From NCBI GenBank assembly GCA_002311135.1, contig DBZK01000020.1, positions 121,708-185,707 on the forward strand: a DNA stretch of 64,000 bases, in the 5' to 3' direction. The position numbers and the translations under genes were made by a program. Positions within the stretch are counted from its first letter, which is position 1. Every line of letters starts with the position of its first letter. The notes beneath the pieces were generated by a model. It ran no database searches. It was not told the DNA's origin and worked only from the letters and a program-made list of their open reading frames with translations. Shown here in pieces: positions 55,351-62,034 of this stretch. Source of the DNA: Dehalococcoidia bacterium UBA1162. Lineage in GTDB: Bacteria; Chloroflexota; Dehalococcoidia; GIF9; UBA5629.

Positions 55351-55778
55351 CCTTTTACCTCTTCTTTAATAGTCTCACGTGCTACAAATCTGGTCTTGAT
55401 TGGCAACTTATAGGCGGCCAATGTGAGTGCTTCCTTAGCCATATTCTCTTTAATGCCGCCGATCTCAAATAGCATCCGGCCAGGCTTCACCACAGCTACC
55501 CAATGGTCCACAGCGCCTTTGCCGCTGCCCATACGGGTTTCAGCCGGTTTCTTGGTAACTGACTTGTCCGGAAAGATGCGGATCCATACCTGTCCGCCAC
55601 GGCGGAGGTAACGCACTATAACACGGCGTGCCGCTTCGATCTGCCTGGAAGTAATCCAATGGGCCTCACTGGCCTGCATTCCGAAGTCGCCGAAGACAAT
55701 CGTATTACCCGATTGTGCTTTACCACGCAGGTGGCCGCGGTGGCACTTACGATACTTCACTCGTTTCGGTTGTAACAC
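55347..55778 (-). CDS. rplP: 50S ribosomal protein L16
   Basis: 143 aa, [11 protein letters not shown]. Confidence 0.95.
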
Positions 55779-56768: not shown

Positions 56769-57068
56769 TTACGTCAACGGCTTCTTGACTGGCGCTGGCG
56801 CTGCTGTTGCCTTGCCGACATGGCCTCGGAATGTACGGGTGATGGCAAATTCGCCCAGCTTATGGCCAACCATATTTTCAGTCACGAAAATAGGCACGTG
56901 GCGCCTTCCGTCATGCACACCTATTGTATGGCCGATCATTTCGGGCATAATGGTGGAAGAGCGAGCCCAGGTCTTAATGACCTGTTTTTCACCCTTCTTA
57001 TTAAGGGCTTCTATTTTTTTCAGCAGCTTGGGATGACAGTACGGGCCCTTTCTCGCTGAACGTGACAT
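56769..57068 (-). CDS. rpsS: 30S ribosomal protein S19
   Basis: 99 aa. Confidence 0.95.
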
Positions 57069-57083
57069 ACTTAATTTACCTCT

Positions 57084-57914
57084 TTATTTTTCGGCATACC
57101 TGCGCCTGACGATCAATTTATCGGACGGTTTGCCGCTGCGGGTCCTATGGCCCAACGCCGGCTTACCCTGAGGCGTTTTGGGGGCCATGCCGCGCGGCGC
57201 TCTGCCTTCACCGCCGCCATGCGGATGGTCACGCGGGCTCATAGCCGAGCCTCTGACCTTGGGCCGCCGTCCCAGCAGCCGTATTCGACCTGCTTTGCCT
57301 GATTTAACATTCTGGTGGTCCAGGTTTCCCACCTGGCCGATAGTAGCACGGCACTCGATCATAAACCGCCTGACCTCGCCGGAGGGTAAACGTACCGTTG
57401 CATATTTATCTTCGCGACCGAGCAACTGGGCGGACGTGCCAGCGCTCCTGACTATCTGCCCTCCCTTATTGGGTTCGAACTCCAAGTTATGTATCATGGT
57501 GCCTGAGGGGATATTTGCCAGCGGCAAATTGTTACCGGGCTTGATCTCGGCATCCACCCCCGTCATTACATTATCTCCGACACCCAATCCCAGTGGGCAC
57601 AATATGTAGCGCTTCTCGCCATCGGCGTAGAAAATCAGTGCTATACGGGCGGAGCGGCCGGGATCATACTCGATTGCAGCCACCTTACCGGGAATGCCGA
57701 GCTTATCGCGTTTAAAATCTATAATACGGGTCCTGCGTTTGGCGCCACCGCCTCTATGGCGTGTGGTAATAACGCCCCTGCTATTCCTTCCGGCTTTCTT
57801 CTTCTGAGGAACCAGCAGCGACTTTTCCGGCTCGGTCTTGGTAATATCATCAAAGGATATCTTTACCATTCCGCGACGGCCGGGAGATGTAGGGCGAAAT
57901 ATCTTTAAAGCCAA
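57084..57914 (-). CDS. rplB: 50S ribosomal protein L2
   Basis: 276 aa. TTG start preceded by AGGAG 8 nt upstream. Confidence 0.95.
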
Positions 57915-57934
57915 CTCTAACTACTCCTAGCTTT

Positions 57935-57997
57935 TTACGGATGACGTCTTTGCCATCGGTTCTTTCTCAAGAGCTTACGATGCTTATGCTTCGCCAT
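57935..57997 (-). CDS. 20-codon highly basic micro-ORF (MAKHKHRKLLRKNRWQRRHP) in the 133-nt rplW-rplB spacer; candidate mini ribosomal protein (bS22-like)
   Basis: Hand translation of the minus strand. 12 of 20 residues are K/R/H. The stop lies immediately before the rplB RBS. It fills an unusually long gap in an otherwise tightly packed operon. The SD (AAGAAG) is weak. Confidence 0.4.
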   Translation of the reverse strand: MAKHKHRKLLRKNRWQRRHP

Positions 57998-58047
57998 CTT
58001 CTTTTTGCGTTTCTTTATAACAGAACCCAATTTCTACTCCTGTTATC

Positions 58048-58332
58048 TTATACTCCCTCAAAGAGCTGTATTTTGTCGCCTTCTTTGAGTGTTACTATTG
58101 CTTTTTTCCAGCGCGGGCTGGTCACCTGTCGCTTGCCCATTTTCTTCGTTTCGCCAGGCACATATACGACATTGACGTTTACCACGCCCACTTTAAAAGC
58201 CTTCTCCACTGCCTTCTTTACCTCGTATTTGGTAGCCCTTTTATTTACTTCGAAGACATATTTGCCACCCTCGGAGAGGCGGGTGCTCTTTTCAGTTACG
58301 AGCGGCCTGCGAAGCACTTCATATATATCCAT
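58048..58332 (-). CDS. rplW: 50S ribosomal protein L23
   Basis: 94 aa. Confidence 0.95.
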   Translation of the reverse strand: MDIYEVLRRPLVTEKSTRLSEGGKYVFEVNKRATKYEVKKAVEKAFKVGVVNVNVVYVPGETKKMGKRQVTSPRWKKAIVTLKEGDKIQLFEGV

Positions 58333-58358
58333 AAACTTACATTAACCCTCTTAGAAAT

Positions 58359-59018
58359 CTATGCTGCCTTCTGTTCCTGTTTATCCGATTCCTTCTTATC
58401 CCAGATCTCCTCAATGCGCCTTATCGCATCGACATCCAGGATCAGAATCTTATAGGAAAGCAGGTCGGCAACGTTGAGCATTGAGACCATGGTGGTTTTT
58501 ACTCCCGGGATATTGGAGCTTGCCATAGTAATATAATCGTTGCCCAGCGCCACCCCTATAATGGCGGTGCTTTCAACGCCCAGGCGATCGAGTATCTCAT
58601 CGACCAGCTTGGTCTTTGGCTCACTGATCTCCAGCTTATCCAGAATCTTCAATTCGCCGTCGCGCACCTTGCCTGAAAGCACGCTTCTCAAAGCCAGCCT
58701 TCGCATCTTCTTAGGCATGGCCTGCCGATAGCTGCGCGGGTGCGGCCCGAAGACAACACCGCCTCCCTTCAAGAGGGGGGAGGTGGCACTGCCCCGCCTT
58801 GCTCTGCCGGTATGTTTCTGGGCGTACATTTTCTTGGTGCTTCTGCTCACGGAGGACCGGGTCTGAGAATCGGCAGTGCCCTGCCTGCGATTGGCAAGCT
58901 GCGCCAACAGCGCCTGGTGAACTACCGCTTCGTTCACTGTCTGGCCAAATACGTAATCACTTACGCTGATTTTGCCAGCCTTTTTACTTTTTAAGTTAAT
59001 TACCTCTAAATCCATCAC
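58359..59018 (-). CDS. rplD: 50S ribosomal protein L4
   Basis: 219 aa. Confidence 0.95.
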   Translation of the reverse strand: MMDLEVINLKSKKAGKISVSDYVFGQTVNEAVVHQALLAQLANRRQGTADSQTRSSVSRSTKKMYAQKHTGRARRGSATSPLLKGGGVVFGPHPRSYRQAMPKKMRRLALRSVLSGKVRDGELKILDKLEISEPKTKLVDEILDRLGVESTAIIGVALGNDYITMASSNIPGVKTTMVSMLNVADLLSYKILILDVDAIRRIEEIWDKKESDKQEQKAA

Positions 59019-59026
59019 AATAGCCC

Positions 59027-59635
59027 TTAAGAGGCGCTCTCTATTAACACTAATCCGTTTTTGCCGCCCGGTATTGCGCCTTTGAGTAAAACTATATTTT
59101 TAGCCTGGTCGACCTCAACCACTTCGAGATTGCGTACCGTCACTTTGCGGTCGCCCATATGTCCTGCCATTCGCAGGCCCTTGAATACACGGCCCGGTGT
59201 GGTTGTAGACCCGACTGAACCGGGAGCGCGGTGCCTGTCCGATTGACCGTGGGTCTTAGGCCCGCCCCGGAAATGATACCTTTTCACTCCGCCGGCGAAC
59301 CCTTTTCCCTTGGAGATTCCCTCAACCTGGACGATATCGCCAGGCTTAAATATGGTCACATCTATCTTTTGCCCGACCTGGTAATCCTTAACATCATCGG
59401 TTCGCAGCTCACGAAGATATCTATAAGCGCCGTTCTCTTTCAGGTGGCCTTTTTCAGCTTTGGTCAGTTTCTTGGACTCGCCAAAGCCAAGCTGCACCGC
59501 ATTATATTTGTCCTTTTCGACCGTTTTAACCTGCGTGACACAGCATGGCCCGGCCTCAATAGCCGTAACGGCTATCTCCAGGTTTTCCCTGTAAAGCTGC
59601 GTCATGCCAATTTTTTTACCAAGTAAGCCAGCCAT
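59027..59635 (-). CDS. rplC: 50S ribosomal protein L3
   Basis: 202 aa. Confidence 0.95.
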   Translation of the reverse strand: MAGLLGKKIGMTQLYRENLEIAVTAIEAGPCCVTQVKTVEKDKYNAVQLGFGESKKLTKAEKGHLKENGAYRYLRELRTDDVKDYQVGQKIDVTIFKPGDIVQVEGISKGKGFAGGVKRYHFRGGPKTHGQSDRHRAPGSVGSTTTPGRVFKGLRMAGHMGDRKVTVRNLEVVEVDQAKNIVLLKGAIPGGKNGLVLIESAS

Positions 59636-59646
59636 ATCTTCAATTC

Positions 59647-59955
59647 CTATAATCTGATATCGATTTCTACACCTGACGGCAACTGCAACTGCGTCAAGGC
59701 GTCAATAGTCTTGCTGGTCGGACCCACGATATCAATCAGCCTTTTATGAGTCCGTATTTCAAATTGCTCCCGTGAATCCTTGTCGATGTGAGGCGACCGT
59801 ATTACACAGAACTTCTCTATCCTGGTCGGAAGCGGCACCGGCCCAATAACCTCTGCGCCGGATTTGATGGCTGTTTCAATGATCTGACCGGCAGATTGGT
59901 CCACCAACCTATGATCATAACCCCTCAATTTAATTCTTATCTTCTGCTTGGTCAT
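59647..59955 (-). CDS. rpsJ: 30S ribosomal protein S10
   Basis: 102 aa. Confidence 0.95.
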
Positions 59956-62034
59956 TTACCTACCCTTTGATTTAGCTAACATTTCCTCAAGTATACTGGC
60001 CGGCACTTCGCTATAATGATCGAATTCCATCGAAGACGTGGCTCTGCCCTGAGTAAGCGACCTTAATGCTGTTGTATAACCGAATGATTCTGCCAGCGGC
60101 ACAAAGCAGTGGATAACACATGTTTCGCCGTGGGTCTCGATTCCTTCGATGTGGCCCCGCCTGGAATTGATATCGCCTATCACATCGCCCATAAAGGAGG
60201 CAGGTGTCACCGCTTCCAGCCGCATGATCGGCTCAAGCACTACCGGTTTGGCCTTGGCCACACCCGCTTTGAGGGCCATAGATCCGGCCATCTTAAAGGC
60301 CATTTCCGATGAGTCTACCTCGTGTTCACTACCATCGAAAACCGTTACCGTGACATCAACCAACGGGTATCCGCTTAGTCCACCGCTATCCAGCGCTTCA
60401 CGTACACCAGCTTCAATAGCAGGGATATACTGCCTGGATATATCTCCACCGCGAACCCCATTAACAAATTTAAATCCACTGTTCCGCTCGCCGGGCTCGA
60501 TTCTTAACCAGCAGTGGCCGTATTGTCCGTGGCCGCCGGTCTGCCGAATAAAGCGGCCTTCCGCTTCAACAGCTAGGGTGACAGTCTCTTTATAGGCAAC
60601 CTGGGGTTTGCCAACGCGCACCTGCACGCCGAATTCCCTCATCATACGGTCGATCAAGACCTCAAGATGCAGTTCGCCCATGCCGGATATAATGGTTTGT
60701 CCTGTTTCTTCGTTAGAACGTACTTTAAAGGTCGGGTCCTCTTCCGACAGCCTGCCAAGCGCATCGCCCAACTTATCCTGGTCAGCCTTGCTCTTGGGCT
60801 CAACCGCCATGGATATAACCGGCTCAGGGAACTTAATATCTTCCAGGAGTATGGATTGGCCCGCCTCGCAGAGGGTATCCCCTGTAAAGGTGTTCTTCAA
60901 ACCGAGTGTGGCCGCTATGCTACCGGTATCGACTTCATCGATTTCCTCACGCTTGTTAGCGTGCATCAGCAGCAGCCTGCCCAGTCGTTCTTTGGTATCC
61001 CTGCTGGCATTGTAAATCTGGGTGCCCACTTTCACACGGCCTGAATACACCCTGAAATAGACCAGCCTGCCTACGAAGGGATCTGATACAACTTTAAATG
61101 CCAGGGCACTGAACGGCGCGTCATCACTGGCCGGACGGGCAACTTCCTGTCCGCTAACGGTATCGATCGCCTTCAAAGGCGGTTTGTTTAAAGGGGACGG
61201 AAGATAATCGACAACGGCATCCAGCACTAATTGAATTCCTTTGTTTCTCAAGGCAGTGCCGCACACAATAGGAACTATCCTATTGGCAACTGTCAGCCGC
61301 CTGATGGCAGCTTTTATGTCCTCTATATCGATATCCTGGTTATCTACATATTTAAGCATAAGCTGGTCATCGTTTTCCGCCAGCTTCTCTATCATTTTGT
61401 GCCTTTCTTTGGCTGCTTCCTCTTTTAAATCGTCAGGAACCTGCATTTCCTGCGGTTCCTCGGTAACTTCATCGGGGAACGTCCAGGCTTTGTCGGCAAC
61501 CAGGTCCACCACCCCGATAAACGCACTCTCTCTCCCGATCGGAAGCTGTATGGAAACCGTTCTGGCCTTGAGCCTCTCCTCTATCATCTCGATAGTGCGC
61601 AGATAGTCGGCGCCCACCCTATCCATTTTATTAATGAAACATATACGCGGAACACCGTATTTGTCGGCCTGGCGCCATACAGTCTCGGACTGTGCTTCGA
61701 CACCCGCTACCGCATCCAGGACAACCACTCCACCATCGAGGACGCGCAGGCTGCGCTCAACTTCAGCCGTAAAATCAACGTGGCCCGGCGTATCAATAAT
61801 GTTTATGCGGTGCTCCCGCCAGTGGCATGTAGTTGCAGCGGAGGTTATGGTGATGCCTCGTTCCCTTTCCTGAACCATCCAGTCCATGACGGCCGTGCCA
61901 TCATGCACTTCACCGACTTTATAGGTCCTGCCGGTATAGAATAAAATACGTTCGGTTGTAGTGGTCTTGCCGGCATCGATATGTGCGATAATACCTATAT
62001 TCCGAACTTTATCAAGCGGAAATGATCTTGTCAT
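59956..62034 (-). CDS. fusA: elongation factor G
   Basis: [16 protein letters not shown]1 motif plus domains II-V. The start is placed at the Met of [15 protein letters not shown] (ATG 62034). The longer ORF to 62091 would overlap rpsG. Confidence 0.9.

Follow-up and report, generated by a model that had tools for sequence, protein, structure and literature searches.

bS22 is the bacterial counterpart of mitochondrial mS38. It is a very basic protein of 30-33 aa that inserts into a pocket of 16S rRNA helices h2, h27, h44 and h45 close to the decoding centre; it contacts 23S rRNA as well (PMC10618245; PMC7797042). Work on Borrelia, where the gene starts at GUG, adds H68 to this h2/h27/h44/h45 pocket (PMC10618245). 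In Mycobacterium smegmatis, the binding site has been described as h27/h44/h45, and the protein is non-essential, its deletion leading to higher aminoglycoside sensitivity (PMC10081302). Lys16 of the M. smegmatis protein contacts the kanamycin pocket of h44 (PMC10081302). The protein is more familiar from Actinobacteria, Bacteroidetes and Borrelia, and our literature search found no paper linking it to Chloroflexota, BS22 being a strain name in both of the two matches. Here we describe a locus in a 64,000-nt stretch of Dehalococcoidia DNA (hereafter the window) in which a gene of this family lies inside the S10 operon.

Results

A 31-codon gene fills the spacer between rplW and rplB

On its minus strand the window carries the gene order fusA-rpsJ-rplC-rplD-rplW-spacer-rplB-rpsS-rplV-rpsC-rplP-rpmC-rpsQ. 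Both neighbors of the spacer are in the open reading frame (ORF) list: rplW (58048..58332, minus strand) encodes a uL23 of 94 aa, with Pfam Ribosomal_L23 found on the identical public gene call, and rplB (57084..57914, minus strand) encodes a uL2 of 276 aa from a TTG start, with Ribosomal_L2_N/C found on the public call. The rplW stop ends at 58048 and the rplB TTG start lies at 57914, leaving a spacer of 133 nt (57915-58047). An earlier note on this DNA had singled out this spacer as anomalous, and it does stand out, as the remaining intergenic gaps in the cluster range from -32 to 26 nt. Elsewhere in the cluster, rpsC and rplP overlap by 32 nt (55747-55778, minus strand) with rplP starting at GTG, and the identical overlap is present in the public calls for an identical contig.

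The anomaly vanishes because a TTG-initiated gene of 31 codons fills the spacer. This gene (57935..58030, minus strand; product MGSVIKKRKKKMAKHKHRKLLRKNRWQRRHP) runs from a TTG at 58030-58028 to a TAA at 57937-57935, and its delineation draws on the ORF list together with the family profiles NF047430 and PF08213, PDB chains, conservation and a public gene call, all described below. By direct reading of the sequence, a Shine-Dalgarno (SD) AGGAG (58037..58041, minus strand) precedes the TTG by 6 nt. Once the gene is included, 17 nt separate it from rplW, measured from the rplW TAA at 58050-58048, and 20 nt from rplB, both spacings being normal for the operon. The rplB gene has its own AGGAG at 57928-57924, and its TTG start is shared by the window and all 23 close relatives. 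The same 8-mer of SD context, AGGAGTAG, precedes rplB (57912-57928, minus strand) and the 31-codon gene (58028-58041, minus strand); it may have been left by a duplication of the rplB start region that accompanied insertion of the smaller gene, or may simply be the SD that this clade prefers.

Family profiles and ribosome structures identify the product as bS22

The 31-aa product matches the NCBIfam equivalog NF047430 (30S ribosomal protein bS22) at 67.1 bits against a cutoff of 34 (E 1e-18), with residues 1-30 falling on profile positions 1-30 of 31. It also passes the cutoff of Pfam COX24_C (PF08213), with 39.6 bits where 23 are needed, over profile positions 1-29 of 33. A phmmer search of all PDB chains returned 8crx_X (E 1.9e-7), 9e16_x (3.3e-7), 32nj_x/5o5j (3.4e-7) and 6dzi_j (2.1e-6), the top bS22 chains aligning colinearly from residue 1 or 2 up to 29 or 30; chains of mitochondrial mS38 gave weaker matches (E 0.2-4). 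The window protein retains the overall basic pattern and Lys16, which is invariant in our family alignment (A2). The product is 58% K/R/H, and only 2 of the 49,611 stop-free 31-aa windows taken from all six frames of the whole window are equally rich in these residues; given this rarity and the NCBIfam E value, the ORF is beyond chance. A second copy of bS22 was not found within the window.

We conclude with high confidence that the spacer holds the gene for the small-subunit ribosomal protein bS22 (COX24_C / DUF1713 domain), and the product is unremarkable as a member of a known, curated family of ribosomal proteins. The earlier note's proposal of a bS22-like ribosomal protein gene within the S10 operon is thus upheld by the NF047430, COX24_C and PDB matches, as well as by the substitution pattern reported below (pN/pS 0.058). 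The core motif that it had cited, KKHRKLLRRTRVQRR, proved to be that of the mycobacterial protein in the PDB chain alignment. Thx and bL36, which it had named as comparable mini-proteins, were rejected as identities: NCBIfam and Pfam searches at E <=10 return only ribo_bS22 and COX24_C, with neither a Thx nor an L36 model among the matches.

Where the earlier note went astray was the start codon. It described a 20-aa ORF, MAKHKHRKLLRKNRWQRRHP, from an ATG at 57997 (57935..57997, minus strand). That ORF exists, 12 of its 20 residues are K, R or H and it stops 6 nt ahead of the rplB AGGAG, all as claimed, but it is truncated, comprising the C-terminal two thirds of a gene whose 31 aa begin at the TTG at 58030. 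One might still argue that the functional product is the 20-aa peptide, a novel mini-protein shorter than full-length bS22, given that TTG is a weaker start codon than ATG and that the fragment alone passes the NCBIfam cutoff (39.8 vs 34 bits). The fragment nonetheless falls under the Pfam cutoff (18 vs 23 bits). The 11 codons upstream of the ATG encode MGSVIKKRKKK, matching the family N-terminus MGSVIKKR, and are kept together with the TTG in all 30 orthologs. The TTG is preceded by AGGAG, the ATG by only AAGAAG. The ATG itself encodes Met12, which is internal and invariant in alignment A2, also in the bS22 proteins that ribosome structures show in full. Finally, a collection of 15 billion proteins contains the 31-aa sequence and lacks the 20-aa one. 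We therefore consider a 20-aa product very unlikely and treat the gene as full-length bS22.

The gene is conserved at its position and evolves as coding sequence

Close relatives of the window come from uncultured Dehalococcoidia (Chloroflexota) metagenome-assembled genomes (MAGs), whose uL23 proteins are 88-91% identical to that of the window. The 31-codon ORF directly follows rplW in 22 of 47 genome loci anchored on uL23; one further genome locus (L009) ends before the position of the ORF. At every ORF-bearing locus the rplW-rplB spacer measures 129-134 nt, whereas it measures 3-88 nt in other phyla. Together with the window, these 22 loci make up a close set of 23 in which 19 distinct DNA sequences encode just eight peptides, most of the differences falling on the final residue. 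All 23 have the TTG start and the AGGAG without exception.

Substitutions within the close set follow the codon pattern, with 5, 4 and 20 variable columns at the first, second and third positions, respectively. By the Nei-Gojobori method, pN/pS is 0.058 for bS22 and 0.030 for its codons 8-30, compared with 0.20 for uL23 and 0.17 for uL2 in the same genomes. The other two forward frames are closed in 23 and 20 of the 23 sequences.

We also scanned metagenomes with the family alignment, which yielded 34 confirmed loci. The order L23-bS22-L2 recurs in seven of them (L050, L051, L052, L068, L069, L074 and L083), with uL23 proteins 52-74% identical to that of the window. All seven of these deeper loci begin with TTG and encode the subtype KMAKHKHRKL[LI].K.RWQR[RK]HP. 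Looked up by exact sequence, three of the deeper variants led to Chloroflexota/Dehalococcoidia labels and a fourth was absent from the collection. Frame conservation in the spacers of relatives, which the earlier note had named as a check, is thus found at 22 genome and seven metagenome loci with mostly synonymous change; neither a lack of it nor a lack of family similarity, either of which the note would have taken as refutation, is observed. As judged from these substitution patterns, bS22 is shown to be under strong purifying selection at its exact S10 position in one uncultured Dehalococcoidia clade.

The earlier note had offered as a fallback that the spacer is an L2/L23-responsive leader. 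On that account the spacer would be a non-coding RNA that senses uL2 or uL23, and the ORF would be incidental; a stable hairpin over the start region, conserved within a narrow clade, and the frozen synonymous sites of codons 2-7 in that clade (both discussed in the next section) speak in its favor. Yet the spacer has no Rfam match at E values up to 10, and no Rfam family reaches its gathering score anywhere in the window, which carries no rRNA gene; at E <=10 over 57000-60500, there were only two matches, both at chance level and both outside the spacer. The codon-patterned substitutions and low pN/pS, and a peptide with an E value of 1e-18 against a curated family of ribosomal proteins, are those of a coding gene, and the deeper relatives lose the hairpin while keeping the peptide. 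The leader-RNA reading is effectively refuted by this coding signature, and we assign it next to no probability.

A hairpin over the start region marks the window's narrow clade

The bS22 gene does carry a predicted structure. A 9-bp hairpin (58017..58046, minus strand) pairs AUAACAGGA (58046-58038) with UUCUGUUAU (58025-58017), so that its stem takes in part of the SD and codons 2-5 and the UUG start sits in a 12-nt loop. It begins 4 nt past the rplW stop codon and has a predicted dG of -8.9 kcal/mol (z -4.2), matched by 0 of 200 shuffles. All nine pairs are kept in 20 distinct sequences; eight of them are invariant and one varies only from AU to GU, and no covariation of the pairs was seen in this set.

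Codons 1-7 are nearly invariant across the 23 close sequences, third positions included, and synonymous divergence (pS) is 0.02 in codons 2-7 vs 0.51 in codons 8-30. Codons 2-7 of rplB likewise have a lowered pS, of 0.16, and the frozen sites could instead stem from other demands on the region where a gene initiates at TTG. The deeper S10-embedded loci do carry synonymous changes in codons 2-7 of bS22. The hairpin is absent from four of the seven deeper loci (L052, L068, L069 and L083, with z at or above 0); because the arrangement is the same in these four, it does not require the hairpin. Two others have different, register-shifted pairings of the SD region with the first bS22 codons (L050:127-215 and L074:960-1050). 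In the former (z -2.3) the pairing includes the UUG start itself, and the latter falls short of significance (z -0.8); a degree of start-region occlusion may recur without sequence conservation. The hairpin can at most be a feature peculiar to the narrow clade, laid on top of a coding gene, and is no alternative to the gene.

Other sampled bS22 genes are not flanked by L23 and L2

The remaining 27 of the 34 metagenome loci have no L23/L2 flanks, and most start with ATG. To characterize their surroundings, Pfam was run on ten flanking ORFs from seven of these standalone loci, and it returned unrelated functions at all seven: thiolase and aldehyde dehydrogenase (L079), MgsA and an HU/IHF-type protein (L057), DNA polymerase III delta' (L055), peptidase C26 and PAC2 (L064), GHMP kinase (L077), class-V aminotransferase (L059) and an APH-type kinase (L072). 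Exact-sequence look-ups labeled the standalone variants as other Chloroflexota/Dehalococcoidia, Acidimicrobiia/Actinomycetota and Thermodesulfobacteriota. The S10-operon position is unusual among the sampled loci.

The rplW-rplB gap is 11 nt in another Dehalococcoidia locus (L023). Two other Chloroflexota loci have long spacers, of 152 nt (L024) and 169 nt (L026), and six-frame translation of these found no bS22-like ORF. The L024 spacer (L024:2812-2915; Chloroflexi MAG JACQUA010000367.1), from a more distant member of the phylum, contains a 26-nt inverted repeat, GTCATTGCGAGCGAAGCGAAGCAATC / GATTGCCGCGCTTCGCTCGCAATGAC, with arms 92% complementary and 52 nt apart, and looks like an inserted palindromic repeat element. 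That of L026 (L026:2326-2494; Chloroflexota MAG SCTZ01000032.1) is GC-rich.

bS22 is widespread in Chloroflexota. The simplest reading would be that it is ancestral or widespread in the phylum and that one clade moved the gene into the S10 operon.

The gene is already called in the public record under another name

The earlier note took the gene to be unannotated, and this did not hold. Over 8,096 nt the window is identical, with 0 mismatches, to a public contig of 716 kb (locus L048; GCA_050011675.1, contig JBEKIP010000001.1), on which exactly the 31-aa CDS is called between Ribosomal_L23 and Ribosomal_L2. There it is named "AURKAIP1/COX24 domain-containing protein", a name owed to the domain of mS38/Cox24. 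The exact 31-aa sequence also appears in NCBI as MGA2367049.1 and MGD0354247.1, and bS22 is annotated in dozens of related MAGs, some newer records for related proteins bearing the name "30S ribosomal protein bS22". The gene is, then, already known, called in the public record under a domain-derived name and not as "bS22".

Naming and boundaries vary across the family. A search of protein representatives with the 31-aa query gave 44 matches at E <=1e-3, the family collapsing at 50% clustering. Other names on bacterial MAG members include 'aurora kinase A-interacting protein', 'Mitochondrial mRNA-processing protein C-terminal' and 'hypothetical protein'. In many metagenome gene calls (P0020-P0062) bS22 has been made too long, at 40-119 aa, and the domain occupies one end. 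The presence of a 496-aa protein from Rhizobium and of a 276-aa protein inside 90% clusters of 31-aa bS22 sequences is probably a clustering artefact. Tiny ribosomal protein genes with non-ATG starts are easily mis-bounded, as the truncation by the earlier note and the over-extension by public calls attest, and easily misnamed; the matter is mostly one of housekeeping.

Discussion

Probable role and expression of bS22 in the S10 operon

By analogy with the solved ribosomes of Mycobacterium, Cutibacterium, Flavobacterium and Borrelia, the basic peptide would form a bent helix in the 16S rRNA pocket of h2/h27/h44/h45, beside the decoding centre, and would also touch 23S rRNA as an inter-subunit contact. 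We infer this placement in the 30S pocket of the present lineage from likeness to those homologs. Family membership is no proof of an important role, as bS22 is dispensable in M. smegmatis, and that dispensability is also compatible with a different idea, in which a true bS22 homolog has taken on a non-ribosomal task in this lineage, perhaps as a free peptide with an RNA-binding or regulatory function. Our PDB sequence search gave no Chloroflexota ribosome structure, which leaves room for such a task. What makes it highly improbable in our view is that the gene lies between two core ribosomal protein genes with gaps of 17 and 20 nt, that purifying selection on it is tighter than on uL23 and uL2, that the rRNA-contacting Lys16 and the overall basic pattern are kept, and that all structurally studied homologs occupy the same 30S pocket. 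We favor a ribosomal role for bS22 here, and the S10-operon placement argues for a constitutive, stoichiometric component of the ribosome in this clade. The mycobacterial protein shapes the aminoglycoside pocket of h44, so the presence of bS22 may be relevant to predictions of how susceptible these uncultured organisms are to antibiotics.

The short gaps on either side of the gene, and a scan of 57700-58400 that found no promoter- or terminator-like site, suggest that bS22 is co-transcribed with the S10 operon and would be made together with the core ribosomal proteins. In the narrow clade, the hairpin would mask part of the SD until melted by a ribosome that terminates on rplW; initiation at the weak TTG of bS22 could thereby be coupled to translation of uL23. 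Such coupling is plausible in this clade because the hairpin begins so close behind the rplW stop that the terminating ribosome would open it. Tentatively, and with somewhat less than even confidence, we propose that the clade recruited bS22 between rplW and rplB with a weak TTG start, and that in the window's sub-clade the SD-masking hairpin makes bS22 synthesis dependent on uL23 translation. If true, it would mean that an 'optional' ribosomal protein specific to a lineage has been wired into the stoichiometric program of the core ribosomal proteins, a case not described before.

Comparison with known bS22 and mS38 proteins

The actinobacterial bS22 proteins (M. smegmatis MSMEG_0945, M. tuberculosis Rv0550B and that of Cutibacterium acnes; PDB 5o5j, 6dzi, 8crx) belong to the same family, NF047430, and are 73-76% identical to the window protein over aligned residues. 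They share with it the N-terminus MGSVIKKR, Met12, Lys16 and a KHRKLL core, and differ in having 33 rather than 31 aa, an ATG rather than a TTG start, and 'RVQRR/RIQRR' in place of the 'RWQRR' (Trp26) that marks the window's subtype. Whereas the window gene lies inside the S10 operon, the sampled loci of Actinomycetota/Acidimicrobiia type have non-ribosomal neighbors. The standalone bS22 proteins of other Chloroflexota/Dehalococcoidia (for example, L053, L055, L079-L082; MCX5995295.1, MCH6555571.1), at 31 aa and with a 'TRWQRRH' C-terminus, are about 80% identical to the window protein. Their genes start with ATG and have no L23/L2 flanks, in contrast to the TTG start and S10-operon position of the window's clade.

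The bS22 of Borrelia burgdorferi (bb0822) offers a parallel, as it too is a tiny, very basic 30S protein with a non-canonical start, in its case GUG (PMC10618245). It was missed by automated annotation because of that start (PMC10618245). Its authors place it closer to the Flavobacterium type, and it was truly unannotated, having been found through cryo-EM density (PMC10618245), unlike the window's bS22, which the public record had already called. With mitochondrial mS38 / Cox24 / AURKAIP1 (PF08213), finally, the window protein has in common a basic C-terminal domain of about 30 residues. The mitochondrial proteins, which are only weak matches, have this domain behind long N-terminal extensions (111-200 aa), whereas the window protein is the bare domain.
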